A DNA stretch of 60,251 bases from Candidatus Woesearchaeota archaeon (lineage in GTDB: Archaea; Nanobdellota; Nanobdellia; Woesearchaeales; JAGLGH01), in contig DAOVBM010000004.1 in NCBI GenBank assembly GCA_030670545.1, forward strand, positions 1 through 60,251, read 5' to 3'. Shown here in pieces: positions 2,119 to 54,558 of this stretch. The notes under the pieces are model-generated. The model did no database searches and had not been told where the DNA came from. It worked only from the letters and a program-made list of their open reading frames with translations. A program made the position numbers and the translations under genes. Position 1 is the stretch's first letter, and every line of letters begins with the position of its first letter.

Positions 2119-2200
2119 AATCACAAATACACTAAATGGAGTATATAATATTTTCGATTGCCTGATTAAAATAATCAAAATTAGAGGTTACTTTGCACTG

Positions 2201-2506
2201 CTATTCCTTGACCTTAAAATCAACATCAATCACTTCATCATCTGTTTTTGGCTTCTTTTTCCTGTTTCCTGCTCTAAATTTCTTAAATACGGATGGTTGC
2301 TTTCGCAGAATAAATAATGGAATTATTATCAAAAGCAGTATTATCAGGACAGCCAAAGCAAAAAACCCTAACACTATAAAAAGATAAGCTCCTGTAAGAA
2401 AACTTAACGCTTTCCATCCTTTATCCCTTGCAACAAGATAAATAAAATAGACAAGAATAAGTGTAAATACTGTCCCTGATATGCTGAATGTTTTTCTGTA
2501 TTTCAT
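2201..2506 (-). CDS. small membrane protein (about 3 TM), unknown function
   Basis: 101-aa ORF with an ATG start, three hydrophobic helices and a basic/acidic tail. It fills the gap between pheT and the surface protein gene. Confidence 0.5.
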   Translation of the reverse strand: MKYRKTFSISGTVFTLILVYFIYLVARDKGWKALSFLTGAYLFIVLGFFALAVLIILLLIIIPLFILRKQPSVFKKFRAGNRKKKPKTDDEVIDVDFKVKE

Positions 2507-2520
2507 TATAACGATTAAAA

Positions 2521-4200
2521 CTATCTGTTCACTGCTTTGTAAAGTTCAGTAAGATTCAATTCAAATGCAGCTACAGGATAATCTAATTTCCAATTCCCTA
2601 ACACTTGGGGGTGTATCTCTCCAATGTATGCTATTTTTTTTCCATTTACTTTTACTCTTCCACATCTACCAGGAATAAAAGAATTATGCTCTGCTTCAAT
2701 TATTTCATAAGATACTCCTAATGAACCCATTAAAAAGTCAAGAGCTTGTTTTGCTTTTGTAAAATCTGAATTTTTATCAATTATACCCCAGGCAATTCTT
2801 ATAGGGTTAATTGCTCTTGTTTCTGCTTTTTCATCAGGAATTACGACTTGTCCAATCTCAAATATCTGCTGAGGATATTCTCTATTGGTATTCTTTGAAA
2901 ATATTTCAAGAAGTTGAGGGATTATCCATGTTCTAAATACACACCAATTTTTTGAGACTGCATTATCTATCTCAATAATTTTTTGAGTTTCAGGGTCAAT
3001 ATCCATATTTTTAAATAAGTAATCTTTATTTGTCAGTACATATGACATGACTTCCTGACAGGATAATCCCACCATAATATCAGCAATGTCTCTTGCAAAT
3101 TGCTCTTCTCCAATCAAACTATGTTCTGTTATGATTTGGGGTGATTCCGGAACAATATTATTAAAACCATATCCAATCAATATATCTTCAACAATATCCA
3201 TTGGATGCATAATGTCCTGCCTGTAAGGTGCATAATATACTTTAAATGATTCTTTTTCTTCTTTTACATCAAATCTTGCTCCTTTTAGAAGTTGGATTAT
3301 CTTTTTATCTGTAATTGTTTCTCCTAATGTTTTAATTATTAATTCTTTGGAAACTATAATTTCTTTTAGGGAAAAATCAGGGGATATTATAGTTTTACCA
3401 TTGTCTTCAATTTCTACTGTTTCAAGTTTCCCCCCCCTATCAATTAAAGCTGAAACAACTACATTTAACGCTGGAACAATAAATTTCATATCATGGCCAC
3501 TGCACTCAATAAATAAATTGTGTGTATCTTTTGTGACTTTTCCTGTATGTTCTGAGTTGATAACTGGTGGCATTGATAAAACTTCTCCAACAGAATCAAT
3601 AAACAACGGATATTTGTCAAAACCTTCAAGAAGATCACCATATTCCTTACCTTTAGGGTGTTTTGATAGTATCTGGCGCAAGGTAATCTCTTGGGGGTAA
3701 TCGAGAGGTTGAAATTTGGTCTTGTCTGGATCAAATGCTTTATATGTTATTGGGCCTGTTATCTTATCATAATCATATATGCCTATTGCTGCCTGGTCTC
3801 GATTTCTTCCAAAAGTTTCACAGACTTTTTCCTGTAATTGGATTATCTGGAATAGTACTTCTTCAGTAATATTAATTTTCTTGATAACTGCGCAAACAGT
3901 CAATGGCCTTATTTTTTTAAGATTTCTATCAATTGTAAGTTTTAATCCTGATTTTTTTGATGTATAATTGATGGCTCCTGATTCAATATTATATTTTGTT
4001 TTGAGTTCTCTGGCAATTCCTTCAACAGACCAAAGGTCCGGCCTATTTGTATCAGCAATCTCAAGTTTTATGCGATCGCCATCTACTTCTTCAAATTCAC
4101 CCTTAACAAAAAGGATTCCTTCTTTTTCAAGTTCTTTTATTGGTATTTTTTTCCCAATAAGATTGCATAAATCCTTATATGATATTTCTATTGTTGGCAT
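2521..4200 (-). CDS. pheT: phenylalanine--tRNA ligase beta subunit
   Basis: 559 aa, archaeal-type PheRS beta (N-terminal MPTIEISYKDL...DRIKLEI..NRPDLWSVEGIAREL). It lies 3 nt downstream of pheS. Confidence 0.92.
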   Translation of the reverse strand: MPTIEISYKDLCNLIGKKIPIKELEKEGILFVKGEFEEVDGDRIKLEIADTNRPDLWSVEGIARELKTKYNIESGAINYTSKKSGLKLTIDRNLKKIRPLTVCAVIKKINITEEVLFQIIQLQEKVCETFGRNRDQAAIGIYDYDKITGPITYKAFDPDKTKFQPLDYPQEITLRQILSKHPKGKEYGDLLEGFDKYPLFIDSVGEVLSMPPVINSEHTGKVTKDTHNLFIECSGHDMKFIVPALNVVVSALIDRGGKLETVEIEDNGKTIISPDFSLKEIIVSKELIIKTLGETITDKKIIQLLKGARFDVKEEKESFKVYYAPYRQDIMHPMDIVEDILIGYGFNNIVPESPQIITEHSLIGEEQFARDIADIMVGLSCQEVMSYVLTNKDYLFKNMDIDPETQKIIEIDNAVSKNWCVFRTWIIPQLLEIFSKNTNREYPQQIFEIGQVVIPDEKAETRAINPIRIAWGIIDKNSDFTKAKQALDFLMGSLGVSYEIIEAEHNSFIPGRCGRVKVNGKKIAYIGEIHPQVLGNWKLDYPVAAFELNLTELYKAVNR

Positions 4201-4202
4201 TT

Positions 4203-5738
4203 TTATCGGTTATATTTTTTTTGTTTTTTTAAGTAATCTAAATCATGGCTAAATATGTCTCGGATGTCTTTTATTCCTAATTTTAACATTGCAAGCCGAT
4301 CAAGTCCAAAACCCCATGCTATCACTGGTTCTTTGATACCTAATGGGGTGCATAGTTCTGGTCTAAATATTCCTGCTCCTGCAAGTTCCAGCCATCCGAA
4401 TTTTGGATGTTTTACTGATATTTGTACTGAAGGTTCTGTGAAAGGGAAGTAATCTGGAAAAAATCTTGCTTCTGTTGCTCCTGTTAATTCAAATGCACAA
4501 TCTCTTAAAAGACCAAGGAGGTGTTTGAATGATAAATCTTTTCCAATAACAAAACCCCCCATTTGATTAAACTCAACACCATGTGTTGCATCAATTACAT
4601 CTGGACGAAAACATCTTACTAAACTGAAATATTTTCCAGGTGATTTGATTTCTTTTGCCATATATCTTGGAGATATAGCAGTATCATGTGCCCTGGGCAT
4701 AAGCTGCATTGCTATTTTTGGATCCCATTTATAACCCCACCCTGTTGAACCAGAGTCACCACCATTTTCATGTGTTTTACTGACAGCTTCAATAATCTTT
4801 TTATCAGGAAGATCACCATATTTTGGTTCTTTTATTTTATATGTCGCTGTCCAGGTTCTTGCTGGATGATTTTGTGGTTGGTATAATGCATCAAAATTAA
4901 AAAATTCAGTTTCAATTATTGGTCCTGTCATTTCAACAAAACCCATCCTTAAAAGAATGTGTTTAACTTCATTAATAAATTCATTATATTGGTGTTTTTT
5001 TCCTCCATAAATCTTAGGAACATTTATCTCTACATCATATCTCCTGAACTTCCTGCCCTTCCATGCACCATTCTTCAGCATATCTGGTGTCAGTCTGTCA
5101 ATAGCGCCAGAAGTTTTGATTTTCATCTTTGACAGCTTTTTTCCAAGTTCAGTAAGCTCTGCTGTCCTGTCCTTTACAAATGTTGTTTTTATTATTTCCT
5201 TTCTCTTCCTGAAAATATCATAAGCAAATCTCTCTTCATCACTTAGTCTGGAAAGCGCAACACTGCCTTTAGATAGTTTTTTAAGAAATTTATCTTCAAT
5301 ACTCTCTTTATCAATAATATTTTTCCCCTGCGCAGTCAGCTCAATCTTATTGTCCCTGAAATTGATTGCTGCTTTTCCTTTAAGTATTCCGATACAGGCG
5401 TTTAATTCAGATTTATCAAGCCCTGCCTTTACTGCTATTTTACCCATGTCCTGTGGCTTGTCTTTGATAGCTATAAGAAATCTTTTTTCAGGAAGCCCTT
5501 TTTCAAGATACTCTTTTCCATTGGCATCCAGGCTTATCTTTTCTTTGGGTTCAGTCTTTATCTTTGCAATATCTTTATTCTCTAGCCACTGCAAAGCCCT
5601 CATTACCTCAATCTGTGAAAGACCTGACACATCAACAAGTTCTGCCAGGCTGTTATGCTCAGCAATTAGAGGGAGCACTTTCTGCTCTAATGGGTGCAGT
5701 GTTTCTATTAGTTTTTGTGTATCTTTATCTGCTGCCAT
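4203..5738 (-). CDS. pheS: phenylalanine--tRNA ligase alpha subunit
   Basis: 511 aa. Class II aaRS motif 2 (FRPDVIDATHGVEFNQMGG) and motif 3 (GFGLDRLAM), plus the N-terminal wHTH region typical of the archaeal alpha subunit. Confidence 0.92.
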   Translation of the reverse strand: MAADKDTQKLIETLHPLEQKVLPLIAEHNSLAELVDVSGLSQIEVMRALQWLENKDIAKIKTEPKEKISLDANGKEYLEKGLPEKRFLIAIKDKPQDMGKIAVKAGLDKSELNACIGILKGKAAINFRDNKIELTAQGKNIIDKESIEDKFLKKLSKGSVALSRLSDEERFAYDIFRKRKEIIKTTFVKDRTAELTELGKKLSKMKIKTSGAIDRLTPDMLKNGAWKGRKFRRYDVEINVPKIYGGKKHQYNEFINEVKHILLRMGFVEMTGPIIETEFFNFDALYQPQNHPARTWTATYKIKEPKYGDLPDKKIIEAVSKTHENGGDSGSTGWGYKWDPKIAMQLMPRAHDTAISPRYMAKEIKSPGKYFSLVRCFRPDVIDATHGVEFNQMGGFVIGKDLSFKHLLGLLRDCAFELTGATEARFFPDYFPFTEPSVQISVKHPKFGWLELAGAGIFRPELCTPLGIKEPVIAWGFGLDRLAMLKLGIKDIRDIFSHDLDYLKKQKKYNR

Positions 5739-5763
5739 TTACGCCTTAAAAAACCCATCCTGT

Positions 5764-5771
5764 TATATAAA
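5764..5771 (-). promoter_or_regulatory. TATA box (TTTATATA on minus strand) for pheS
   Basis: TTTATATA is centred about 29 nt upstream of the pheS ATG. This is the same spacing seen at several other genes in the window and implies a leaderless or very short 5' UTR. Confidence 0.45.
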
Positions 5772-5783
5772 CTTTTCTTTAAG

Positions 5784-6109
5784 GTAAGTAAAAAGTCTGC
5801 TATTCAAGGAGCATCAGCATCATCAGTCAAAACTTAATCCTTTGCCTTATCCTGTTCGTCGCGGGGAACCTCTGAGGCAAAACCGAACGAGGTGCCAGAA
5901 ATTGTGAAACAATTTCTCAGCAGCCCCATTCGGGGACGCAGAACCTTCTGATAACCTATCCTAAGTACTTGGAGAGCAAAGCTCTCTAAGTTACTTGGAA
6001 GGCATAGCCTTCTAAGTTCTTAAGGAACTTTGTTCCTCAAGACTTAATGAGCTACGCTCATCAAGATTTGAAGATGCTTGTGCTCCGTTACATCTGACTT
6101 TTTACTTAC
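5784..6109 (+). mobile_element. MITE family A, copy A1 (expanded 326-bp variant)
   Basis: Perfect 14-bp terminal inverted repeat GTAAGTAAAAAGTC / GACTTTTTACTTAC. It is flanked by the perfect 8-bp direct repeat TCTTTAAG (5776-5783 and 6110-6117). It is homologous to copies at 27653, 38355 and 50553 and has two internal insertions. Confidence 0.8.
5962..6062 (+). repeat. tandem array of four ~25-nt units, each a TAAGTNCTT-like spacer plus a 6-7 bp/3-nt-loop hairpin
   Basis: Units: taagtactt-GGAGAGCaaaGCTCTC, taagttactt-GGAAGGCataGCCTTC, taagttctta-AGGAACtttGTTCCT, caagacttaa-TGAGCtacGCTCA. Stem sequences differ but complementarity is kept. Confidence 0.7.
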
Positions 6110-6732
6110 TCTTTAAGCTTTATTCTTTTTAGTGATTCTTTTGCTTCTCCGCCTTCCATGCCAAGAGACTGCATCAATGCCATCATGTCCCGTGGATAGC
6201 GCAGCTTATAAGGATTGTCTGCAAAGCTCGCTGTTATCATACTCACTTTATACTTCCTGCACAACTTTATATTCTGCATTATTCTTGACATTATTGCAGA
6301 CTTTTTCATACCTTTGCGCTTAAGAAGCATAGAAAATGAAAATGCTACTGAAATATTATTCCTGCGCGCAAGTTTTGCAAGGACCTGGTTCATTCCACTT
6401 GCCTTATGGTGAATATAATCCTTTTGTGATACCTCTTCAAGGCCATAAATGATGTTAATATCTTTTGATTCAAAGAATTGCCTGTTCTTTTCCCCTGCCT
6501 TGACAATTTTCAGGCCTTCTGTCTTGCGCGCATTGTTCAGGTTGCTATTTCCTATACTGAACACCCTAATTAATTTTACACTCTTGTCCTGCATTCCATC
6601 AAGATTATTCTCTACTTTCTGCTTTTTGGCCATAAAGGGATATACAAAAATAAGACTGCTGTATCCAAGCCTTTTTGCCATTTCTATGAAATCTGCTTCA
6701 TTTCCATTGGGTATTACAATATCACAGAACAT
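6106..6732 (-). CDS. rnp3: ribonuclease P protein component 3 (Rpp30-like)
   Basis: 208 aa. CDIVIPNGNE.DFIEMAKRLGY at the N-terminus and the overall pattern recall archaeal Rpp30 (PHP/TIM-barrel-like). This is a family call from memory. The stop codon lies inside the MITE A1 terminal repeat. Confidence 0.6.
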   Translation of the reverse strand: MFCDIVIPNGNEADFIEMAKRLGYSSLIFVYPFMAKKQKVENNLDGMQDKSVKLIRVFSIGNSNLNNARKTEGLKIVKAGEKNRQFFESKDINIIYGLEEVSQKDYIHHKASGMNQVLAKLARRNNISVAFSFSMLLKRKGMKKSAIMSRIMQNIKLCRKYKVSMITASFADNPYKLRYPRDMMALMQSLGMEGGEAKESLKRIKLKE

Positions 6733-6822
6733 AACTAACAGAGAAAGGAGTTTTTATATAAATGTTTTGTGAGCAAAATTTAATGCCTTAGGGTATATTG
6801 ACCACTAGATAGTAAGGAAAGA

Positions 6823-8616: not shown

Positions 8617-8957
8617 TTTTCTGTTATTTGGCCATAAGTATAAGAACAATTAAAAGCTTTTGGATTTACAAAAAATTTCGCAGAAAATTTTAAATTATGC
8701 GAAAAATATTTATAGTAGAAGAAATATTGCGTTATTTAACATGTTTAAAATCCCTGTAATTGGATTATGGAATCATTTTATTCTCTCTATTAGAGTGGAA
8801 ATTACAGACTCCATTACTGGGAAATACAAACTTGTGAAACCAGTGATGTGTTAAATTCCTAATAAAATCTTTGGGAACTGGCAAATCACTGGGGGTCTAA
8901 AATTCTATAAGGATTGAACTGGTGGTTTGCAAAGCCTAAAGGTTTTTGGATATCATG

Positions 8958-13922: not shown

Positions 13923-13924
13923 AA

Positions 13925-14093
13925 ATAGATAACAAAAATTTGACAATTTATTGATAGTAAATCCTATCCCCACCATAAATGAGGGGTATTATGGATTTGC
14001 ATTATAGATTATCAAATTTTTGGAATCCAAAATTTCGCACTGAAGTGAGGGGTATTAAACCCCAATAAAATTTCTTGCGAAATTTTCGATAAA
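13925..14093 (+). repeat. repeat family B, copy B1 (~170 bp, internally palindromic)
   Basis: Near-identical to 22290-22459, differing at roughly ten positions by eye. Contains the AAAATTTCGC/GCGAAATTTT stem around GGGGT-ATTAA-ACCCC. Confidence 0.75.
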
Positions 14094-14124
14094 TTAGATA
14101 AAAATAAAGGGGATTTCTATATAT

Positions 14125-22235: not shown

Positions 22236-22289
22236 TGTTATTTTATGTTTTAAGTTCTTATGCTTTATTTTGTTTAATATAAGTTTAAT

Positions 22290-22459
22290 ATAGATAACGA
22301 AAATTTGACAATTTATTGATAGCAAATCCTATCCCTACCATAAATGGTGGGGTATTACAGATTTGCATTATATATTATCAAATTTTTGGAATCCAAAATT
22401 TCGCACTGAAGTAAGGGGTATTAAACCCCAATAAAATTTCTTGCGAAATTTTCGATAAA
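22290..22459 (+). repeat. repeat family B, copy B2 (inside putative origin)
   Basis: Second copy of the ~170-bp element. Contains TTTCGCACTGAAGTAAGGGGT (22399-22419) and the inverted ACCCCAATAAAATTTCTTGCGAAA (22425-22448). Confidence 0.75.
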
Positions 22460-22472
22460 ATAAATTATTAAA

Positions 22473-27624: not shown

Positions 27625-27652
27625 TTTCTTAATTGATTTTAATGATTTTCAA

Positions 27653-27826
27653 GTAAGTAAAAATTCTGCTATTCAAAGAGCACCAGCATCATCAGTCAAA
27701 ACTTAATCATTTTCCTTATCCTGCTCGTCGCGGGGGGAAATCCCATTCGGGGACGCAGAGCCTTCTAATAACACATCCTAAGTTTTGAAGATGCTTGTGC
27801 TCAGTGACGTCTGACATTTTACTTAC
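27653..27826 (+). mobile_element. MITE family A, copy A2 (174 bp)
   Basis: Termini GTAAGTAAAAATTC ... GACATTTTACTTAC. Perfect 8-bp direct repeat ATTTTCAA at 27645-27652 and 27827-27834. Confidence 0.8.
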
Positions 27827-27837
27827 ATTTTCAACAA

Positions 27838-27847
27838 ATTATATAAA
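27838..27847 (+). promoter_or_regulatory. TATA box for 27870 gene
   Basis: ATTATATAAA is centred ~27 nt upstream of the ATG and lies immediately after the MITE A2 target duplication. Confidence 0.4.
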
Positions 27848-27869: not shown

Positions 27870-28835
27870 ATGGACATCAGAGATAGAATCCTCCAGCTCA
27901 TACAGGAAAAAGGCCCAGTGATTCCAGTACAGATAGCAAAAGAAATAAATTCAAGCATCCTGCTGACTTCTGCTTACCTCTCAGAACTTGTCTCCCAGAA
28001 GAAACTTAAGATGTCTGTATTAAAAATTGGAGGAGGAAGTTCACTTTATTATATTCCTGGTCAGGAGTCTAGGCTGCAGGAGTTCGCAAATAATCTTAAT
28101 GAGAAAAACATGCGTACATTTGAATACCTCAAAGAGAATAAGGTATTGAGGGACAGTGAATTAACTCCTCTTATGAGGGTGTCTGTAAGGGAAATCAGGG
28201 ATTTTGCAAAACCATTAGAAGTAATGTTTGACAATAAGAAAGAAATATTCTGGAAATGGCATACTATTGACAATAAAGAGGCAGAGCAGGTAATCAAGCA
28301 GAAGCTGAACACCTCACTACCAATAGCAGAAACAGAAAACCACAAAAAGGAAACAAAAGAAAATAAAGCAGAAAAAGTAGAGAAAAAAGAGAATGTGCAA
28401 AAAAAATCAGCAGAATCTCAAAAGCAACCAATAGAAAGGCAGGAAAAGCTTCCACAAGAAAAGAAAACAACAGTTGATGTACAACAGGATCAAAGCAGTA
28501 TCACTATGTGGCAGAACGCAGACAGTCCATTCATAAGAAAGATAAAGAATTATATTAATATAAAGAATATTAAGCTAAGTGAAGTGAATATAAACAGGAA
28601 AGATTCAGACATAGAATTAATAATGAATATTGAATCTTCAATAGGCGAAGTTACATATTTTTGCAGGGCTAAGAACAAGAAGAAGATAAATGAAGGTGAT
28701 TTAAGTTCTGTATTCATGCAAGGGCAGATGAAAAAACTTCCAGCCTTTATGATTATGACAGGAAACATGACAAAAAAGGCAAAAGAAATGCTTGCAACAG
28801 AACTCAAGGGTCTTTCTGTTGTCAGGATAGAATAA
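27870..28835 (+). CDS. winged-helix protein with Lys/Glu-rich linker and C-terminal Mrr-cat/PD-(D/E)xK-like domain (catalytic residues uncertain)
   Basis: N-terminal wH (ILQLIQEKGPVIPVQIAKEIN..YLSELV), a second wH-like segment and a low-complexity linker. The C-terminus DIELIMN...VTYFCRAKNKKKINEGDLSSVFMQ....AFMIMTGNMTKKAKEMLA...LSVV follows the Mrr catalytic-domain layout, but RAK replaces (E/Q)xK. Confidence 0.45.
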   Translation: MDIRDRILQLIQEKGPVIPVQIAKEINSSILLTSAYLSELVSQKKLKMSVLKIGGGSSLYYIPGQESRLQEFANNLNEKNMRTFEYLKENKVLRDSELTPLMRVSVREIRDFAKPLEVMFDNKKEIFWKWHTIDNKEAEQVIKQKLNTSLPIAETENHKKETKENKAEKVEKKENVQKKSAESQKQPIERQEKLPQEKKTTVDVQQDQSSITMWQNADSPFIRKIKNYINIKNIKLSEVNINRKDSDIELIMNIESSIGEVTYFCRAKNKKKINEGDLSSVFMQGQMKKLPAFMIMTGNMTKKAKEMLATELKGLSVVRIE

Positions 28836-28836
28836 T

Positions 28837-28878
28837 CCTAAGATGCTTGTACTCCATGACATCTGACTTTTTACTTAC
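28837..28878 (+). mobile_element. MITE family A, fragment A3 (3' arm only)
   Basis: CCTAAGATGCTTGTACTCCATGACATCTGACTTTTTACTTAC matches the last ~42 nt of A1/A2. No 5' arm is present. It starts 1 nt after the stop of the preceding gene. Confidence 0.7.
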
Positions 28879-28892
28879 TCATTATCTATAAT

Positions 28893-28900
28893 TTTATATA
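28893..28900 (+). promoter_or_regulatory. TATA box for fen
   Basis: TTTATATA is centred ~27 nt upstream of the ATG at 28924. Confidence 0.45.
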
Positions 28901-38272: not shown

Positions 38273-38354
38273 TCTGTATTTAGAGTATGAACCAATAGTT
38301 AATAAATGTTATCATTATTGGTATCTGCTTCTCCCTATCCTAATGTCAGAATAA

Positions 38355-38527
38355 GTAAGTAAAAAGTCAGATATAACGGAGCACAAGCATCTTCAAAACT
38401 TAGGATAGGTTATTAGAAGGCTCTGCGTCCCCGTAAGGGACAACCCCCGCGACGAGCAGGATAAGGAAAAGGATTAAGTTTTGACTGATGATGCTGATGC
38501 TCCTTGAGTAGCAGACTTTTTACTTAT
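38355..38527 (-). mobile_element. MITE family A, copy A4 (173 bp, inverted orientation)
   Basis: Termini GTAAGTAAAAAGTC ... GACTTTTTACTTAT. Perfect 8-bp direct repeat CAGAATAA at 38347-38354 and 38528-38535. Confidence 0.8.
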
Positions 38528-38541
38528 CAGAATAAGCAAGA

Positions 38542-38549
38542 TTTAAATA
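38542..38549 (+). promoter_or_regulatory. TATA box (AGATTTAAATACT context) for M16 peptidase gene
   Basis: Centred ~29 nt upstream of the ATG at 38574, a few nt after the MITE A4 target duplication. Confidence 0.45.
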
Positions 38550-42341: not shown

Positions 42342-43559
42342 ATGCCACCTAAAAAAGCAGCAAAAAGAGCAGCACGCAAATCTTTAGCAAAGAAGCATAC
42401 AAGAAAATCCAGAAAACATTCTGTGCCAAAGCAAAAAAAACCATTAGTGAAGACAGCGAAAGCTTTATCCACACCAGAAGAAATAATAAGTGAAGTAAGA
42501 AACGAGAAGATATTTTTAGCTGGTCATAAGTCAAGAGCTGAAGATGAGAATATAATTCTTATAAAGAAAAGGGACATACTGCAAGAAAGGGTCCAGGAAC
42601 TAAAATCAGGTATGAACGAGGCAAATGAGCGGATAATTACTCTTGCAGAAGAAATTGCCAAGAGAAACAGTAATCTTAAGCTGCTTTCAGATGCATATAT
42701 TGAGGTAAAAGAGAATTATGATTCAATGAAGGCGAATATAAGCAAGTTTAAGTCAGACATAGCATCAAGAGATTCTACTATCCAAAGCCTGAAGTCAGTT
42801 ATTGAAAAATACAAAAAACAGATTATGAGAACCAACCCCCATATTGAAACCCTGTACAAAAGGTTGACACAATCCCAGATCAAGGAAAGGCAAATAGCTA
42901 TAATCAATAATAAGTTGAATAAGCAGTGCGACATCCTTATTGAAGACACTAAGAAAAAAGATATGGAATTAACGCAGAAAGACGAAGAAGCAAAAAATCT
43001 GGTTGAGAAAGAGCGCAGCAGGATTACGCTGGATGCAGAAAAACAGATTACAGATTATTTGCAGAAAGAAATGTTTCTAAAGAAAAAAATCGCGCATATA
43101 AATAAGCAGCTTATGGAAAAAGACAGTATAATCACTCAGAAGGACAAAAAGATATCAATGCTCAATGGAATATACAGGAAGATTAAGGATTTTATTGAAA
43201 CCGGAAACATAGTCACAGGAAAAGCAGCAACTGCAAAGAAGCGAATCTTCCCTTCTTTTGTACGGAAAACAGTCCCTGAGAAGCCTATTCAGTTGTTTCC
43301 TGAAGAGGAACAAGAAAAGGGCCAGCTCCAAGGGATAGAGGAAAAGGGATTTGAGACTGAACCAATTGTAATTGAGAAAACTGCTCCAGCTGAAGAAACA
43401 CTTCCCTATACTGCTGATGAAATAGTTCCTATAGTAATTGTTGCCTTGCAGCATGGAGATTCCCATGCAACTATAAAGAATTCTTTAATAAGCTCTGGTT
43501 ATAATCCTGTTGAAGTGAATAAGGCTGTAGAAAAAGTAAAAGAAAAATCTGCAGCATAA
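42342..43559 (+). CDS. Lys-rich N-terminus + long coiled-coil protein, unknown function
   Basis: 405 aa. MPPKKAAKRAARK... basic head, ~250 aa of heptad-like coiled coil and a small C-terminal globular segment. It starts 13 nt after rfcS. It is not an RFC large subunit, having no Walker motifs. Confidence 0.55.
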   Translation: MPPKKAAKRAARKSLAKKHTRKSRKHSVPKQKKPLVKTAKALSTPEEIISEVRNEKIFLAGHKSRAEDENIILIKKRDILQERVQELKSGMNEANERIITLAEEIAKRNSNLKLLSDAYIEVKENYDSMKANISKFKSDIASRDSTIQSLKSVIEKYKKQIMRTNPHIETLYKRLTQSQIKERQIAIINNKLNKQCDILIEDTKKKDMELTQKDEEAKNLVEKERSRITLDAEKQITDYLQKEMFLKKKIAHINKQLMEKDSIITQKDKKISMLNGIYRKIKDFIETGNIVTGKAATAKKRIFPSFVRKTVPEKPIQLFPEEEQEKGQLQGIEEKGFETEPIVIEKTAPAEETLPYTADEIVPIVIVALQHGDSHATIKNSLISSGYNPVEVNKAVEKVKEKSAA

Positions 43560-43597
43560 ATTGCTGCTTTAACAAAAGTTTCCACAGATCATTTGGT

Positions 43598-44524
43598 TTA
43601 TTCTTTCTTTATCCTTACAGATTCCTGTATCAGATACCTGTATTTGTATTTGATTGTCAGGCCAAGGTCTTCTGTATAAAGTGTTCCTTTTGGCATAGCA
43701 TCTTTAAGTTTACAGGTTATCTTTGCTTTCCCTGCAGAGTCAAATCTTCCTTCATTTAGCTTGCCTGCTGCCCTACACTCCCATTTGTTATCATCTGATG
43801 ATTCAAATGCGAATTTATTGTACCTTCTATCAAAATCCTGTCCCTGAATCGCAACATCCCCTCCGCCTGCATTATCTATTTCAATCTCAACAGCAATCTT
43901 TGAGCTTCCTGCTGTAGCTTCTTTTGCGGATTTTACCTGGATAGGTGCTCCTGAAGAAAATACTTCTTTTGGTTCACTTACATCGCATATTGATTCATCC
44001 TGGAGATCTTCTTTAAAGCATACTTTCTTCACTGTAGTTTCAGTCCTGTAATCAAATACAACCTCAGCGAATATATCAAGATCAACTGATGAGCCACTGA
44101 ATTTTGTTACATATTTTGCATCATCAGTGCCAGGGGTGAAATCAAGAATCTCTTCTCCTCCTAGATCATTTGTCTCTGATATCTTCTCAATTGTTTCTTT
44201 ATTTGATAATAGGCCTCCTTGTGCAATGCCTGAAAATGACCCAAGATATATACCTTTTAGTGTTACTGTAACTTCTCCCTGATTTACTTCTGTTTCACCT
44301 TTATTCTGGAGAATAATCTCTATCGGAAATGTCTCATCTTCATATATTTCATTTATTTTTGTATCATCATTAAATATTCCCAGATCCATGAATTCTGCGG
44401 AAATTCCTCTTGTTCCACCAACATAAGGCGATTCCGCAATCTCGACAGTTGTATCCTTGTTACAGCCTGCAAACATAAATACTAATAATATAATTGAAAC
44501 CAATGCAATCCATTTATTATCCAT
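43598..44524 (-). CDS. secreted lipobox protein, paralog 1 of surface-module family
   Basis: Signal peptide ending ...VFMFAGC. Shares ordered motifs with 44572-45516 and 45587-46558. Confidence 0.7.
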   Translation of the reverse strand: MDNKWIALVSIILLVFMFAGCNKDTTVEIAESPYVGGTRGISAEFMDLGIFNDDTKINEIYEDETFPIEIILQNKGETEVNQGEVTVTLKGIYLGSFSGIAQGGLLSNKETIEKISETNDLGGEEILDFTPGTDDAKYVTKFSGSSVDLDIFAEVVFDYRTETTVKKVCFKEDLQDESICDVSEPKEVFSSGAPIQVKSAKEATAGSSKIAVEIEIDNAGGGDVAIQGQDFDRRYNKFAFESSDDNKWECRAAGKLNEGRFDSAGKAKITCKLKDAMPKGTLYTEDLGLTIKYKYRYLIQESVRIKKE

Positions 44525-44571
44525 TTTGATACCTCCTCTTATAGATATAATTTTTAATACTTTATAAATTT

Positions 44572-45516
44572 TTATACTTTAATTATCTCTACTCTTTTTT
44601 CAATTGATGATGAATAAACATAATCCAGTTCTATGTGGAGAGAGGTAATGAAAGTTGTTCCTGTCTCAGGCTTTCTGAATTTGCATGTTATGAATCCAGT
44701 TCCCCCATCTCTTAACATGACTGGCTCAGATCCACTGCCTCTTGGGGTGCACTGAGGATTTGAATCAAAAGGAAGCTTTGCATTGACCCTTACCCTATTG
44801 ACATCCTTAAGCTCAAGCTCAAAAGGACAGTAGTCATATGATGTCCAGTCAATTACTTTCCCATTGCCTACATTGCTTATATAGATATCAAATATTATAT
44901 GATCTGAACTTACCCTCTCTTCAATTCTTGTGATTGCTACAGGCGCGCCCTGGCCGCCTCCAGTGCTTATAGCATCATCAAAGCGGCATACTTTTTTCTC
45001 AGTTATGACTTTATAAGGTTCAGGGTCTATGCATACTTTAGGGTCAGTGATTGTCTTATATTTGTAGCATGCAGTTACCAGAAATGTTGCATCATATTTT
45101 GGCCCCCCAAATGGAACCTTGACTCCTCTCTTGTCGCTGTAAGTCATTATATCATATCCTCCGTCAGGATATTCCCTTGACCTCCCTCTCAAACTTACTG
45201 GAATTTCATTTCCACCTTCCCATGTACCCCTTATTGCATTAGGGTCAAATCCTGATATTTCCAGTTTGCCCTGGAATGTGTCAGATTCAGGGTAAGACCC
45301 CCTGTTCCTGAGCTCAATCATTATATCAAGGCTGTCGCCGTCATAAACCTTTGATGGTGGAGCATTTGGCACAAAATACATCTCCAGCCCCATTGTGCCA
45401 GTATGATAACTAGTTTCATCAACCCTTATCTCTCCGTCTTGTTCACATCCTGACAGCAGCAGAGCTGCAATCATTATAATGATTATGCAGTAGATTCCTT
45501 GTTTCATTTTTAGCAT
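44572..45516 (-). CDS. secreted lipobox protein, paralog 2 of surface-module family
   Basis: Signal peptide ending ...ALLLSGC. Motifs IELRNRGS, VTACYKYKT..VCIDP, QGAPVAITRIEE, ISNVGNG, ITCKF and IELDYVYSSS..VEIIKV. Confidence 0.7.
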   Translation of the reverse strand: MLKMKQGIYCIIIIMIAALLLSGCEQDGEIRVDETSYHTGTMGLEMYFVPNAPPSKVYDGDSLDIMIELRNRGSYPESDTFQGKLEISGFDPNAIRGTWEGGNEIPVSLRGRSREYPDGGYDIMTYSDKRGVKVPFGGPKYDATFLVTACYKYKTITDPKVCIDPEPYKVITEKKVCRFDDAISTGGGQGAPVAITRIEERVSSDHIIFDIYISNVGNGKVIDWTSYDYCPFELELKDVNRVRVNAKLPFDSNPQCTPRGSGSEPVMLRDGGTGFITCKFRKPETGTTFITSLHIELDYVYSSSIEKRVEIIKV

Positions 45517-45586
45517 TAAACTGATTTTGTCTGGTTTATATTGTTATTCTATCTCCACCTTTTTAAAATTTTCTAAACAAATCAGA

Positions 45587-46558
45587 TTATATACCTATTT
45601 TCCTTATTGATATCCCTTTTGAGATTGTTTGCATATAGCCATAATCTGCAGTTATAGTAAGTGGAGTATAGTAGCTTGAGATTGTTTCATCTATTCCTTC
45701 TTCAAGAGTACATATGGTATAGTCTGAATCTTTTCTTAGTTTCAATAATTCTGGCTTACATGAAAGGGGCAAGTCAGATAATACTGCACTAACCTTTAAT
45801 ACATTGATATCATCAGTTGAAAGAGGTTGTGCAGAGCACGCAATGTCAGCCCTGCCATGAGCTATAATAGTTCCATCTCCAACATTCTCAAAATGGATTA
45901 TAAATTGAGGTCTAACAACTCCCCCTTCTTTTGAGACAATCATTCTTGATTCTATACGCTTTATAGCGACTGGCGCTCCCTGGTCACTAAGGCTTACATC
46001 TGCAGCATTGCATGCCTTTTCGCGCGGTTTCAGATTATATACATCAGTATCGACGCATACGTTTGAATGTCCCTTTGTGTGATAATCATAACATACTGTG
46101 ACATAGATTGTGGTATCGGCTTTTTCTCTCTGCGGGCCTATATCCATTATTTCAAGGTTAACAATATCCACATCTTCCATACCCTCGGGCAAAGCAAGGG
46201 ATTTCCCTTGAATATCTATAGTTATCCTGTCATCTATACCTTTTCCCTGCCAGCTTGAAAGTTTAATATACTCCTTTTCATATCCCAGAAGAAGGTAACC
46301 TCTTTTCACGTCTGATGTTCCTTTATTTTCCATAATGATTCCTGCCTGGATCAATGAGCCTTCAATGACATCTGGAGGCGGAGCGCCTTCAATGAATTCA
46401 ATTATCAGCCCGTCAGAGCCTTGTTCTATATCTTCAAGTGAAGGCCTTTCAGGCTTGTATACCCTATCGCATCCTGATGTAAGGATAATCAAAATACATA
46501 GCAGAAGGAACAGGCAAAATGCATTGCTTCTCTTTTTTCCTGCCTTATTTCCTTTCAT
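45587..46558 (-). CDS. secreted lipobox protein, paralog 3 of surface-module family
   Basis: Signal peptide ending ...ILTSGC. Motifs IMENKGTS, VTVCYDYHT..VCVDT, QGAPVAIKRIES, FENVGDG, TICTL and ITADYGYMQT..ISIRKIGI. The ATG at 46558 overlaps the upstream stop (TGATG), and the track start at 46561 is a TTG. Confidence 0.7.
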   Translation of the reverse strand: MKGNKAGKKRSNAFCLFLLLCILIILTSGCDRVYKPERPSLEDIEQGSDGLIIEFIEGAPPPDVIEGSLIQAGIIMENKGTSDVKRGYLLLGYEKEYIKLSSWQGKGIDDRITIDIQGKSLALPEGMEDVDIVNLEIMDIGPQREKADTTIYVTVCYDYHTKGHSNVCVDTDVYNLKPREKACNAADVSLSDQGAPVAIKRIESRMIVSKEGGVVRPQFIIHFENVGDGTIIAHGRADIACSAQPLSTDDINVLKVSAVLSDLPLSCKPELLKLRKDSDYTICTLEEGIDETISSYYTPLTITADYGYMQTISKGISIRKIGI

Positions 46559-49107
46559 CAACTTACTACCCCATTCTTAAGTTCTATATTGGGATTGAAT
46601 AATAATCCCTCCCAGGCTGCAGGCTCTTGCGCAGGTCTTTGTATCATAACTTTGTATGATCCAGAATGAAGGTTCCTGTAATAATTAAATGTTTCAATTT
46701 TCATTTGGTCTAATAACGTGTTTTTACTGTCGCTCAGCAGGTATACCCAGATTCCATCAATATTCTTTTTAAAGCCTTTTATAAAATAATACTGGTCTGC
46801 GTCAGTCCATTTTCCATCATTATTCTTATCTTCTCCAACAAGATCATTCTTCTTGAAAAGAGTTGCTATTGGCACAGCTTCTTCTTCTTCAATTGCTGCA
46901 TCTGCTTCTCCTTTGCACAGGCGGTTTTTCCATAGGGTGTAGTATTTTAGAGCATTATCTGTACTAAATGTATCAATTTTTGTTTCAGTTTTATATGAAT
47001 CCAATGCTAATTTTATATCCTTTTCTGAGTTAATTTTGGTTTTAAGGAATTTGGCAGCCATTTCTATCTCTTTTATAGGATTGTCAAGGAATGTTGCAGG
47101 ATATCTTATACCATATCCAGTCAGATAGTCTGGTATCTTGTTATCATTTTTGTCTATATTTCCTATTCCGCTTGCTTCACTCATAATCGCAGCAATAAGC
47201 GCTTCAGCTTTGAGGTAATCAAGCCCTTGCGGCTTATTCACTTTTACAATATTTCTGACTGTGCTCTGATAGTTCTTGTACCTCTCAATGTGATCATCTG
47301 GAGGCAGGTTATTTTTGTCAGGAGAATAGTCTTTGCATTCTGTTTCTTCTATTCCTATATCTTCCTGTATCTTCTCACAACCACCACCATATTCTGTCTT
47401 TTTTATATTGACTGTAAGGCTTCTCTGGAGTTCATATTCATAGTCAGCAATTAGCTTAAAGTTCTTGATTGATATAGGAGCATTTCCAAGGAACTTATCA
47501 TAATCACTCTTATCTATCCCTATTCTGCATATCAAACTCTTGTAAAGGCTGATTCCTGGCTGGCCTGCAGGTATTATCCTCTGATTTTTTCCTGTCTGGT
47601 TTAGGACATATATATTGCTTGCATCATCATCACACCATTCATTTTCTTCTCCGAAAACAGCTGCGCAGGTTTTAGCTTCAAAATTATAGCCCCCACAATA
47701 ACTCCCTTCTGCTTTTCCATCAAGTTCAAGGTGCATCTCTTTTGGCAGTATTATTGTAAGGTTCTTCACATCCTTGATATTACCTTCCCAGACATTCTCA
47801 AGGGTTATGCCAAGCCTGAATGATTCTATGTCTCTTTTTCTGTCTATGGCAATAGGCTGGCTTTTTTCAAGCTCTACTCCTATCTTTATCGGTCCGTTTG
47901 TCGAGAGAGCAATAGGGTTTGAGTCATATACTCCTATGTTTCTCAGGATGTCCTCTGGGGTGTTTATGTTAGGATCTTGCCTTATCATACTCTGCATCCT
48001 TTCCCTGTCAATAAAGTAATTCCTCAGGTATGATAGTGTCTGAAACCCGAATGCATGATTAAAATAGATTGTTTTAGATCCTGGAGAAAACCTGCACCTG
48101 TCAAACATGCAGTCTACAGTGATTTCATCATATTGCGATACCTTTTCTGTATCTGGCTTGATTGAATCCGGAAGCACAGACTCTGCATGGCAGAAGTTCT
48201 TTATTGTTATCTCCTCTTTTAATGTCCTAATTGTCAGCCTTGAGTAAACTATTAATGGCTCATCCTCATATACCTCAGGGTCAGTTGATTTGACTTCGGT
48301 TATGCTTACCCCTAATGGCTGCCGCACATTCTGATCGACCTGGGAAGTGTAATAGTCCCCAAATACCATGGCTTGCGTAATGTTTTTTTGCCTTTTATAG
48401 CCCGTGACTGTAGAGGTCCATAGACTTTCACCAAACTCTTTTGTATTTTTCCATGAAGTCGAAGCAAAATCTTTAAAATCAGTAATGTCTTTTCCGTTTA
48501 ACATCTGCTGTGTTCCACCAAACATAACAATGCTTCCAACTGAATGGAATGCATAGAACAATACTATGAACAAGATTAACCATGACCTTTTTCTTGAAGG
48601 TTTTGTGAAAAAAAGTGGCAATAGGAACCAGATTGGGAAAATTAGCTTATTAATACTAAATAATGAGAAAGCAAAAAAGTCAAGAAATAATGCGCCAAGG
48701 ATTATCATGTTTGCCTGGCTTTTTTCCATTATCTTGTACAGCCCAGCAAAAAGGAAAGAGAACGCAAATACTAAATGAATTGTAGCCCCTAAATATCCAA
48801 TACCCCCCATTGAGATAATTATTGAAAGAAACATAACCAATGCTGCAAAGGATAGCATATCTTTGGGATTTCTTTCTTCTTTGTTTATGAAAAGATAATA
48901 TAATGCTACCAAGAGTAGAGTCAAACCATTGATATAAATTCTCCAGTCAGTTAATGCAATACTCCTAAAATAACTAAAATCTATTCCTTTAAAACGTGTA
49001 AAGAAGTCAAGCGCAAAAACCGCTAATCCCAACAATATCCACTCAAAACCAGGCCCGCTATAACTGGGTGTATATCTGGTCTGAGAATCTGGGTTGTTAT
49101 CTGCCAT
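46558..49107 (-). CDS. polytopic membrane protein (~7 N-terminal TM) with large ectodomain containing the same surface module and an SLT-like segment
   Basis: 849 aa. Residues ~20-200 are hydrophobic helices. The ectodomain contains NGPIKIGVE, ITLENVWEGN, LICRIG and LIADYEYELQRSLTVNIKK, which parallel the paralog motifs. Downstream lies the EALIAAIMSEASG segment. Confidence 0.7.
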   Translation of the reverse strand: MADNNPDSQTRYTPSYSGPGFEWILLGLAVFALDFFTRFKGIDFSYFRSIALTDWRIYINGLTLLLVALYYLFINKEERNPKDMLSFAALVMFLSIIISMGGIGYLGATIHLVFAFSFLFAGLYKIMEKSQANMIILGALFLDFFAFSLFSINKLIFPIWFLLPLFFTKPSRKRSWLILFIVLFYAFHSVGSIVMFGGTQQMLNGKDITDFKDFASTSWKNTKEFGESLWTSTVTGYKRQKNITQAMVFGDYYTSQVDQNVRQPLGVSITEVKSTDPEVYEDEPLIVYSRLTIRTLKEEITIKNFCHAESVLPDSIKPDTEKVSQYDEITVDCMFDRCRFSPGSKTIYFNHAFGFQTLSYLRNYFIDRERMQSMIRQDPNINTPEDILRNIGVYDSNPIALSTNGPIKIGVELEKSQPIAIDRKRDIESFRLGITLENVWEGNIKDVKNLTIILPKEMHLELDGKAEGSYCGGYNFEAKTCAAVFGEENEWCDDDASNIYVLNQTGKNQRIIPAGQPGISLYKSLICRIGIDKSDYDKFLGNAPISIKNFKLIADYEYELQRSLTVNIKKTEYGGGCEKIQEDIGIEETECKDYSPDKNNLPPDDHIERYKNYQSTVRNIVKVNKPQGLDYLKAEALIAAIMSEASGIGNIDKNDNKIPDYLTGYGIRYPATFLDNPIKEIEMAAKFLKTKINSEKDIKLALDSYKTETKIDTFSTDNALKYYTLWKNRLCKGEADAAIEEEEAVPIATLFKKNDLVGEDKNNDGKWTDADQYYFIKGFKKNIDGIWVYLLSDSKNTLLDQMKIETFNYYRNLHSGSYKVMIQRPAQEPAAWEGLLFNPNIELKNGVVS

Positions 49108-49228
49108 CTACTGCCTCTTTTTTTAATGCGTATATAAAGTATAGCTCTTAGGATTTACAGGCTTATTCATTTTCTCGGATGCAATTATATGGGGATCACA
49201 AAAATTTTCACAGAAAATTCTTGTAAAA

Positions 49229-50416
49229 TCAAACAAGCTCAACCCTTATGTAATCTATGGTGAGTTCAGTCTTTGGTTCAATTGTGATTGTGTTTGAATC
49301 CTCTTCAATCCACCTGCTTATGTCCTGCTCAAAAGAGTACTCATCTTCCTCAAGGTCAAAGTTGTCCCTGCGGTCATTGATCATGAAGTCGCCTCTTTTT
49401 TCATCATATCCTTTGAACTTTATCTTGAGCTTTACGTCAACATCGCCGTCTATGATATTATCATATATATCATCGCTAACATCAAAACCATACTTCCATC
49501 TCTGCGACTCTTTGTAATCAAGTTCTATTCTTATATTCTGTATTGTATAAGTTCCTTTTGTTGTCTGGAATATGACATAATTCTCACCTTCTTCAAGCAG
49601 GCCGACAGGCATTGGCTGCCTGTATATATCATTGCATTCAGGCACTGCAGAGAATATTTCCCTATTATTTACCAGTATATCAAGCACTCCTACCTTCCCT
49701 CCCTCGCATGAAGGGACAAAATTAAGCTTTGCGCTCTCAAGATTATCATATTCAGAATCGCTTAGAGTAAAGATGTTTCTGCTTTTCTGCTTTGATATAT
49801 CAGTTATGTCTGCAGTGATCTTTGCCCTTTCTATCTTGTATTCATTTGTTCTCCAGAACCTGGATCCGACTCCATCAACGCTGAATTCAAGGTGATTGAT
49901 GTCCTGCAGGTATTTCTTGTCAATCTTGATTGGTTCTATATCACCAATCTTTGCAGGATATTCATACAACACGATTCCATTAAGCTTTATTGTCAATGTG
50001 CCTCTTGCTTCAGTCACCCGCATTGACAGAAGGATATTCTCTGTTTTCTCCATATCCTCTATTGTGAATGTAAGGTTATTGAATTCCTTGTCAAACCAAC
50101 CGTTCTTTATGATAAATGGATTGAATGTGGCAACTTCTTTTGCGTTTATTATCTCAAACAGGTATACATTAGGAAGTTCTTTCTGTTCAGCTTCCTCAAA
50201 AGGGGAGAGATATATGTCTGTCTCTTCCATCAGCACGTCTTCCTGAAGTACAGTTGTACTGTCACTTGTTGTAGTTGTCGTCTTTCCTTCTTTCTCATCA
50301 AGAAGCTCTTCCCTTACATCTGGTGGGAGGAATAGTATATAGAATATAATCAACAGTAAGATTATCAATACAAGTGTGGCTGCTTGGGATCCGCCAGCCT
50401 GTGCCTTTCTTCTCAT
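49229..50416 (-). CDS. N-terminally membrane-anchored extracellular protein, first gene of surface cluster
   Basis: 395 aa. MRRKAQAGGSQAATLVLIILLLIIFYILF anchor, a Thr-rich linker (TTTTSDSTT), then beta-rich domains ending in ..IRIELDYKES.. and ..TIDYIRVELV. Confidence 0.65.
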   Translation of the reverse strand: MRRKAQAGGSQAATLVLIILLLIIFYILFLPPDVREELLDEKEGKTTTTTSDSTTVLQEDVLMEETDIYLSPFEEAEQKELPNVYLFEIINAKEVATFNPFIIKNGWFDKEFNNLTFTIEDMEKTENILLSMRVTEARGTLTIKLNGIVLYEYPAKIGDIEPIKIDKKYLQDINHLEFSVDGVGSRFWRTNEYKIERAKITADITDISKQKSRNIFTLSDSEYDNLESAKLNFVPSCEGGKVGVLDILVNNREIFSAVPECNDIYRQPMPVGLLEEGENYVIFQTTKGTYTIQNIRIELDYKESQRWKYGFDVSDDIYDNIIDGDVDVKLKIKFKGYDEKRGDFMINDRRDNFDLEEDEYSFEQDISRWIEEDSNTITIEPKTELTIDYIRVELV

Positions 50417-50552
50417 TAGATATCACCTGCAAGAGTTTTATAATAATTATTGCCTAATTTGAATAATTAAGCAAAAGTTTTTTAACAAGCTTTGATTATT
50501 TGTTATTGGAGTATGCACAAGTGGTGAAGATATATAAATGTATCGATAATTA

Positions 50553-50726
50553 GTAAGTAATAAATAGCTTATAAGGAATAGTAGCATCATCAGGTACAAA
50601 ACCCTTTCCAAGATTTAATCTTGTGCGTCGCAAGGGGTTGCCCCCTTCGGGGACGCAGCACTTTCGGCTACACAACAGGGGTTTTGAAGATGCTACTACC
50701 CCTTAGGCGGCAGACTCATGACATAT
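50553..50726 (+). mobile_element. MITE family A, copy A5 (174 bp, diverged termini)
   Basis: The internal core is homologous to A1/A2/A4 (..AGCATCATCAGG.., ..GCGTCGCAAGGGGTTGCCCCCTTCGGGGACGCAG.., ..TTTTGAAGATGCTAC..). Perfect 8-bp direct repeat GATAATTA at 50545-50552 and 50727-50734. The right terminus is degenerate. Confidence 0.7.
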
Positions 50727-50746
50727 GATAATTACAGGAGAATACA

Positions 50747-54323: not shown

Positions 54324-54558
54324 ATATCATGCTTAGTTAAGATTATATATAAACTTTCTTATTTTCTGCCAGTTTTATGTCAATCACCAAACTTTCCTCA
54401 GAAAACTTATATATGCAAATATTTATATACTAGTTAGATTTATCACAACATGAAGGGATTACTACGCAGTAAAAAATAGAGAGGATGATTGCGCAGTGAA
54501 CTACTATGTTGTGGGAAAAACCGTAACATATTAATAGTAGTAGTTTTAATTCACCCTA

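Follow-up and report, generated by a model that had tools for sequence, protein, structure and literature searches.

A MITE family in an uncultured DPANN archaeon has been mobile recently among DPANN archaea of marine sediments and cold seeps, most probably with a DDE transposase acting in trans and with integration directed to positions near TATA boxes. The probability attached to this reading is about 0.7. The near-universal spacing of 4–6 bases between TATA box and insertion suggests that the transposase targets archaeal promoters. This promoter-proximal targeting habit is probably new, and literature searches returned no report of a fixed spacing to archaeal TATA boxes.

The window (the whole stretch of 60,251 nt that was analysed) is core archaeal DNA from a Woesearchaeota/Nanoarchaeota MAG, an uncultured member of the DPANN, and originates from a marine-sediment metagenome. 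It has a G+C content of 35% and encodes both PheRS subunits, RNase P p30, ThiI, TBP, MCM, both PolD subunits, Orc1/Cdc6, aIF2B, TFE, Hjc, EndA, FEN1, Trm5, RFC and pelota, as well as an ADP-forming acetyl-CoA synthetase. The homologs of two window proteins are labelled Woesearchaeota or Nanoarchaeota by their sources. The intergenic spacers are ~30–120 nt long and consist mostly of promoter. Six consecutive genes at 42342–50416 (405, 308, 314, 324, 849 and 395 aa) have no Pfam match at E < 1e-5, and the gene order of this block is kept in the related Woesearchaeota contigs L062 and L063. Two direct copies of a ~175-bp sequence (13924–14098 and 22289–22465), ~95% identical and 8.4 kb apart, flank the PolD and Orc1/Cdc6 genes. 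Each contains inverted AAAATTTCGCA...GGGGT motifs similar to origin recognition boxes with a G-string, and a related motif is also found at 8664–8692. As the second copy falls in a 24% G+C spacer adjoining orc1/cdc6, these repeats and the spacer probably represent the replication origin region.

Four full copies of the MITE and a truncated 3′ end are present in the window (Table 1). The coordinates of the full copies in the initial annotation all hold, as does its claim that each copy is bounded by a perfect 8-bp target-site duplication (TSD) of its own. Since the four flanking 8-mers are mutually different, they are not part of the element. The 3′ fragment reported earlier is also real. Compared with the empty orthologous site of a related contig (L052), the window contains 56 extra nucleotides (28836–28891), of which the first ~43 nt are the 3′ end of the element and the following 13 nt are flank. 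This fragment is shared with a closer relative, L051.

Table 1. Positions of the MITE copies, their internal motifs and the associated TATA boxes in the window.
Feature	Position	Strand	Details
Copy c1	5784–6109	+	326 bp, long variant; TSD TCTTTAAG at 5776–5783 and 6110–6117
Copy c2	27653–27826	+	174 bp; TSD ATTTTCAA at 27645–27652 and 27827–27834
Copy c3	38355–38527	- (inverted)	173 bp; TSD CAGAATAA at 38347–38354 and 38528–38535
Copy c4	50553–50726	+	diverged subfamily; TSD GATAATTA at 50545–50552 and 50727–50734
3′-end fragment	28836–28878	+	truncated, 8-nt internal deletion; presumed TSD TCATTATC at 28879–28886
Subterminal motif AGCATCATCA	27685–27694	+	33–42 nt from left end
Inverted partner TGAAGATGCT of subterminal motif	27785–27794		
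Central G+C-rich hairpin CGTCGC...GGGGACGCAG	27726–27758	+	conserved across subfamilies; hot spot of secondary insertions
TATA box of PheRS-alpha gene	5764–5771	-	TTTATATA; 4 nt from c1 TSD, 25 nt before ATG
TATA box of conserved hypothetical gene (27870–28835)	27840–27847		TATATAAA; 5 nt from c2 TSD, 22 nt before ATG
TATA box of FEN1 gene	28893–28900	+	TTTATATA; 6 nt from presumed TSD of fragment, 23 nt before ATG
TATA box of M16 peptidase gene	38542–38549	+	TTTAAATA; 6 nt from c3 TSD, 24 nt before ATG
TATA box of pelota	50531–50538		TATATAAA; 6 nt from c4 TSD; 26 nt upstream of ATG before the insertion
Empty target TATTTTCT	54360–54367		6 nt from TATA box at 54346–54353; occupied in L056

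The 14-bp TIR proposed as the consensus terminus describes most copies, with 14 of 14 positions matching in c1, 13 in c3 and 12 in c2, but only eight in c4. The poor fit of c4 reflects its membership of a diverged subfamily with ~65% identity to c2 and c3; the latter two are 88.6% identical to each other over their 173–174-bp units. In the source run (SRR26080965, Logan), which served for the depth and contig comparisons, c4 is single-copy at a likeness of at least 85%. The 14-mer, exact or with one mismatch, is found at element ends only. The TIR itself extends further, to ~17 bp (GTAAGTAAAAAGTC[T/A]G[C/A]) common to the left and right ends. The insertion of c1 cost the RNase P p30 gene (6106–6732, minus strand) its last three codons, changing ...LKEKFI-stop to ...LKE-stop, and the new stop codon falls within the terminal repeat of the element.

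The elements had been described as rod-like hairpins that encode no protein, and both properties are borne out. The folds are far more stable than those of shuffled sequences (z = -4.4, -4.5 and -9.95), and the longest stop-free stretches, of 39–61 codons, are not common to the copies. Within the arms, the subterminal motif and its inverted partner show no change in any of the seven copies aligned, those of the c4 type among them, and the central hairpin is likewise invariant across both subfamilies, despite the drifted termini of c4. The subterminal pair is a putative second transposase-binding site. No Rfam family reached the gathering threshold, and the only other match, to a snoRNA (E = 0.5), is put down to chance. 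Double changes occur in 5 of 46 base pairs, all of them between the two subfamilies; selection on structure was rejected as a conclusion from this covariation, given too few lineages.

Copy c1 consists of the ~174-bp unit with two internal insertions, one of ~45 nt in the central G+C-rich hairpin and one of ~93 nt. The latter is composed of four tandem, perfect hairpin modules of ~25 nt (about 5967–6059). Loose ends in a cold-seep run match both inserts identically, and the long variant is therefore itself multi-copy. The modules of c1 (5967–6059) and those in L013 (1450–1500) share the layout ACTTRR-stem-loop-stem-YYAAGT. Their stems are all different yet fully complementary, and they have one common insertion point in the right arm; such modules also occur in cold-seep contigs.

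The central hairpin is occupied by nested elements in two other contigs, L056 and L005. In L005 (MAG014), positions 1–1763 form a 1763-bp IS4-type IS with 17-bp TIRs (CAATGTCRTTAAGTTAA) and a 432-aa DDE_Tnp_1 ORF, lying within the central hairpin of a family copy. In L056, the corresponding place of a family copy that the window lacks is taken by a 195-bp MITE derivative (4221–4415), which shares these TIRs and has a 10-bp TSD, GGGTCGCTCC. These two insertions indicate that the G+C-rich centre of the MITE is itself the target of a second transposon.

The boundaries and the abundance of the element were visible in the source run. Contigs leave the element exactly at 27653 (at least 12 different left flanks) and at 27826 (at least 15 right flanks), and several of the contigs that diverge at the termini have the depth of the window's genome. 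Depth is 11–14 in the flanks and 900–5200 within the element, which is 70–400 times the genome depth. Per genome-equivalent, the source sample thus contains the element in tens to hundreds of copy-equivalents. The density within the window was originally noted as high. A value of ~75 copies/Mb is indeed high, and a MITE is present at ~1 in 7 of the window's promoters, but the figure falls within the range already on record for DPANN, 105–146 MITEs/Mb (PMC11602168).

An exact scan with a 20-nt end retrieved true relatives, some with their own duplications, only from DPANN MAGs. A Nanoarchaeota contig (L012, MAG014) has a full copy that is 88% identical, with a TSD matching at 7 of 8 positions. 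The MAG RS_10_27 has a 206-bp copy (L013) which contains two of the small hairpin modules and is flanked by a 6-nt repeat (TTAAAC) that is out of register by 1 nt. Three contigs of this MAG terminate within the repeat; the assemblies of these MAGs are broken by the family, since contigs end in it. Element 31-mers were detected in 12 marine-sediment or cold-seep runs from four studies.

Empty sites, which were suggested as a check on the MITE reading, were found for c2, the fragment and c4. The syntenic loci for this comparison were reached through protein neighbours. In L052, where the neighbouring protein is 68% identical at the amino acid level, the genes for EndA, the conserved hypothetical protein and FEN1 lie together without c2 and without the fragment. 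In L062 and L063 (pelota 71% identical), the c4 target occurs once, as GATATTTAAAT-TTATC-GATAATTT. A nearer relative, L056, matches the window at 95.7% identity across 4.1 kb and shares c4 as an ortholog of 92.5% identity. It also has an extra family copy, starting at the equivalent of window position 54368, and both the window and the source run are empty there. The difference between occupied and empty sites in such close strains implies that the element moved recently. A 247-nt skip at c4 in run X4 was rejected as a clean excision, and a search for read-level empty-site joints in related runs gave nothing usable, the contigs being too short.

Two sites are occupied in more than one lineage. 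At the c2 site, L051 (neighbouring protein 94% identical at the amino acid level) has a copy whose TSD is shifted by 1 bp, GATTTTCA instead of ATTTTCAA. This counterpart is 13% diverged, which is compatible with neutral drift, and the two may be a single old insertion with junction indels. At the c4 site, the pair of GATAATTA repeats in L057 (pelota 81% identical) encloses a copy of the main type, which is inverted relative to c4. That main-type copy separates the TATA box from pelota (L057 1793–1842). The spacer after its TSD measures 42 nt, compared with 12 nt in the window. A new TATA-like sequence, AATAAATA, lies in this spacer 23 nt before the ATG and may compensate for the displaced pelota promoter.

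The c4 site allows two histories. The orientation, the conservation of the flanks and the perfect duplications argue for repeated hits on one target rather than an old shared insertion. The other history, in which c4 is a decayed ortholog of the main-type copy in L057 whose arms were kept complementary by conversion and whose centre was flipped by recombination between the arms, is judged unlikely. It would account for the identical TSD and position in the window, L056 and L057, and the lineages are distant enough (pelota 81% identical at the amino acid level) that neutral DNA could be about 30% diverged; the single-copy state of c4 at a likeness of at least 85% in the source run also agrees with it. 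Set against this, the window and L057 agree at 92% of the flanking 40 nt, whereas the elements are only ~70% identical and lie in opposite orientations, and a perfect 16-nt pair of TSDs would be improbable after 30% decay. A c4-like right end, ...GACTTATTACAT, is also found on three other contigs of the source run, so the c4 subfamily has other members.

The feature that sets the family apart is its position relative to promoters. An exact TATA consensus (TTTATATA or TTTAAATA, on either strand) lies 4–6 nt outside the duplicated 8-mer at eight of the ten independent sites that are informative. The gap is 4 nt at c1; 5 nt at c2 and in L004; and 6 nt at c3, at the site shared by c4 and L057, at the fragment, at the extra copy of L056 and in a second MITE family. 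In L013, a TATA box with one mismatch lies at a gap of 5 nt, and no TATA box was found near the TSD of the L012 copy. Three further sites, visible on one side only, were left out as uninformative. In 12 window genes the TATA 8-mer ends 22–25 nt ahead of the ATG, a distance expected where transcripts are leaderless, and it is therefore a real promoter element. It is present in empty sites, and so is not part of the MITE. No site has a box on both sides, and the box can be to the left or the right of the element; the element end next to it is the left one in four cases and the right one in another four, with no orientation bias.

When the elements are removed from the window, the same spacing is found at 2.0% of intergenic positions and at 0.34% of all positions. 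The probability is then 1.5e-7 for all four window copies and ~1e-12 for at least 8 of 10 sites; the rule itself was noticed post hoc on ~10 independent sites. Given an insertion within 32 nt of a box, a gap of 4–6 nt would be expected in 3 of 33 cases, and simple arithmetic gives ~5e-9 for eight out of eight. Most copies lie on the BRE side, just upstream of the BRE and TATA box of a leaderless gene; the promoter stays intact there, as the native upstream bases are retained through the duplication. In a minority (c4, L057, L004 and probably L009), the element falls between TATA box and ATG; the original distance of the pelota box from its ATG places c4 between that box and its gene. Copy c1 took up a position that conforms to the rule at the cost of the three p30 codons.

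A further element with this placement is found in L012. Positions 5237–6793 form an IS with perfect 26-nt TIRs starting GGCACTG, a 9-bp TSD (GTAAATGTC) and a 429-aa zinc-finger/DDE-like ORF without a Pfam match; it is read as IS6-like from its motifs and TIRs. Its TSD lies 6 nt upstream of an exact TTTAAATA box, which is itself 22 nt before an ATG. The same 6-nt gap in an unrelated element speaks against a property of a single transposase; a host-related or structural cause, or else selection, is favoured instead.

Selection is the main competitor to targeting. The MITE would be genuine but would land in any AT-rich DNA and survive only in the few free bases upstream of promoters of a tightly packed genome. 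With spacers of ~30–120 nt that are mostly promoter, purifying selection would enrich promoter-proximal survivors, insertions on the upstream side keep both BRE and TATA intact through the duplication, and the unrelated IS6-like element is placed likewise. Yet a gap only 3 nt wide is not predicted, as gaps of 0–3 nt would be equally harmless when the TSD preserves eight native bases, and larger gaps were free at c2 (33 nt) and c3 (about 50 nt). The places taken are also not the least harmful ones, as c1 truncates a gene and the copies at c4, L057 and L004 part the TATA box from its gene. Finally, two subfamilies, in opposite orientations, have inserted at one and the same 8-mer. Survival as the explanation for the spacing is accordingly considered improbable, at odds well below those of targeted integration.

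A quite different reading would make the repeat a structured RNA or regulatory DNA (REP-like, a terminator or insulator, or a small RNA gene) that was spread by recombination or kept for its function. The strong rod fold, internal blocks that are invariant across subfamilies, a few pairs changed on both sides, a T5 run at the far end on either strand and the closeness of the copies to promoters are all in keeping with such a module. It is nevertheless hardly credible, as different perfect 8-bp duplications and clean empty sites are the marks of integration at a staggered cut, not of recombination. In addition, there is no match in Rfam, the orientation relative to neighbouring genes is random and no RNA run was among the runs with the element, although this last point is weak evidence.

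The MITE reading of the initial annotation, a non-autonomous TIR/TSD transposon inserting into AT-rich 8-bp targets, is supported by the exact boundaries, the empty sites, the polymorphism and the relatives. The elements are 173–326 bp long without coding capacity, have TIRs and TSDs of constant length that differ in sequence, and occur as dispersed, polymorphic copies. Beyond the window, TSDs are seen in L051 (GATTTTCA), L057 (GATAATTA) and L012 (7 of 8 positions). The description of the family as new can be kept in part. The terminal sequence appeared in no searchable paper, but MITE-rich Woesearchaeota are already present in automated censuses (PMC11602168).

In IS and MITE biology, TIRs and an 8-bp staggered cut point to a DDE transposase acting in trans. 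None of the about 50 ORFs of the window has a transposase domain, in agreement with the earlier statement that the window lacks one. The ORF between c2 and the fragment (27870–28835) was rejected as a transposase, being a conserved hypothetical protein of Woesearchaeota with 599 homologs. The longer element with the same TIRs and a transposase gene, proposed as a further check, was not found in 63 loci or in scans of the collections. Exact scans for a parent IS, which required an exact 17–20-mer match, found none with GTAAGTAAAAAGTCWGMYRT in one scan each of genome and metagenome contigs and none with GTAAGTAAAAAGTCWGM in viral contigs. The matches other than the true DPANN relatives were rejected because they lie inside ORFs or have no partner end, and a 1.2-kb ‘pair’ of termini in L044 was rejected because it lies in a giant phage gene. 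A Pfam search of 20 ORFs from DPANN loci gave one IS4-type transposase. The IS4-like (L005) and IS6-like (L012) transposases were both rejected as parents, as their TIRs are unrelated.

A second, unrelated MITE family of 151 bp occurs in the Woesearchaeota contigs L008, L022 and L027, with a partial copy in L023. It carries the same 18-nt TIR, GTAAGTAAAAAGTCTGCC. The same ends in two unrelated families indicate that one type of transposase probably serves several non-autonomous families. Either of two groups of DDE transposases, IS66/ISBst12-like or Mutator-like (IS256/ISH6/ISLre2), would fit the termini and the duplication of 8 bp.

Known elements share some of these features. Prokaryotic MITEs are likewise ~150–330 bp long, with TIRs, TSDs, a hairpin fold and no ORF; they are also intergenic, present in many copies and dependent on a transposase in trans. 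The available text of an automated archaeal MITE census records one Woesearchaea genome with 105 MITEs/Mb (PMC11602168). The present family differs from the census MITEs in its fixed TATA spacing, of which that text describes no case.

IS66/ISBst12 elements have ends of the form GTAA(G...), with the consensus GTAAGCG, and 8-bp direct repeats (PMC11946415, PMC12898284). The duplications of the MITE are also 8 bp, but its end, GTAAGTAAAAAGTC, matches the first five bases only (GTAAGTA against GTAAGCG). No IS66-type transposase or accessory genes were found with this family among the window ORFs, and promoter targeting is not reported for IS66. Elements with Mutator-like p-MULT DDE transposases (IS256, ISH6, ISLre2, ISKra4) have 18–39-bp IRs with a terminal C and 8–9-bp duplications (PMC3942029). 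The MITE has comparable ends (5′-G...C-3′), with a shared TIR of 17–18 nt and duplications of 8 bp, possibly 9 bp at the c2 site.

The Mutator-like TnGBS/ISLre2/ISKra4 group is the nearest precedent for a fixed promoter offset. TnGBS-type elements insert 15–17 bp upstream of the -35 box of sigma-A promoters, and contact with the transcription initiation complex was proposed by analogy with Ty3 (PMC3942029). The duplications of 8–9 bp, the IRs with a terminal C and a fixed, short distance from a core promoter element are common to both. The TnGBS elements are bacterial and autonomous, target the -35 box and insert upstream only, with their orientation conserved, whereas the MITE is archaeal, has the TATA box as its landmark at a gap of 4–6 bp and is found on both sides in both orientations. 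It does not have the 15–17 bp distance from a sigma-A -35 box or the fixed orientation of that type; it works like the TnGBS type and is not a member.

ISH6, an archaeal Mutator-like family, duplicates the AT-rich motif AANATNTT itself (PMC3942029), and among the literature searched this comes closest to a report of the TATA spacing. Like the MITE, ISH6 has archaeal hosts, duplicates 8 bp and prefers AT-rich, TATA-like DNA. At the MITE sites, in contrast, the TATA box is not duplicated but stands at a fixed offset from the TSD, and the TSDs are without consensus. The LTR retrotransposon Ty3 of yeast integrates at Pol III start sites via TFIIIB, using an integrase. The likeness to this eukaryotic element is that position is set by an initiation complex containing TBP and not by the target sequence; for the MITE, the role of TBP/TFB is a proposal.

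In the mechanism proposed for the targeted MITE, a DDE transposase encoded elsewhere in the genome would act in trans to cut and paste the element, or to copy it, and would make the 8-bp staggered cuts. The enzyme would bind the shared end, GTAAGTAAAAAGTCTGC, which is also carried by the 151-bp family. Integration would be directed to an 8-bp target starting 4–6 bp from a TATA box, on either side and in either orientation; the preference is shown statistically, and its likeliest cause is that the transpososome recognises either the TATA sequence as such or the distortion that TBP/TFB impose on the DNA. A fixed offset on both sides and in both orientations is consistent with a captured target whose shape is set by the TATA sequence or by TBP/TFB bound to it. 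The more specific idea, that one or more archaeal DDE transposases read promoter architecture and integrate one helical turn from the TATA box via TBP/TFB-bent DNA, is offered tentatively and at rather less than even odds.

DPANN genomes are tiny and gene-dense, yet the transposon load in the window is heavy. If true, a TATA-offset rule which duplicates, and so preserves, the BRE side would explain how such a load (~75 or more insertions/Mb) is tolerated. The insertions would then also be a natural reporter of the positions of archaeal pre-initiation complexes. If TBP/TFB-bent DNA is recognised, this would be the first archaeal counterpart of the promoter targeting of Ty3/TFIIIB and TnGBS/sigma-A. 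The transposase, if found, could become an enzyme for integrating DNA beside archaeal promoters. The family itself is usable as a strain-level marker in cold-seep and marine-sediment metagenomes.
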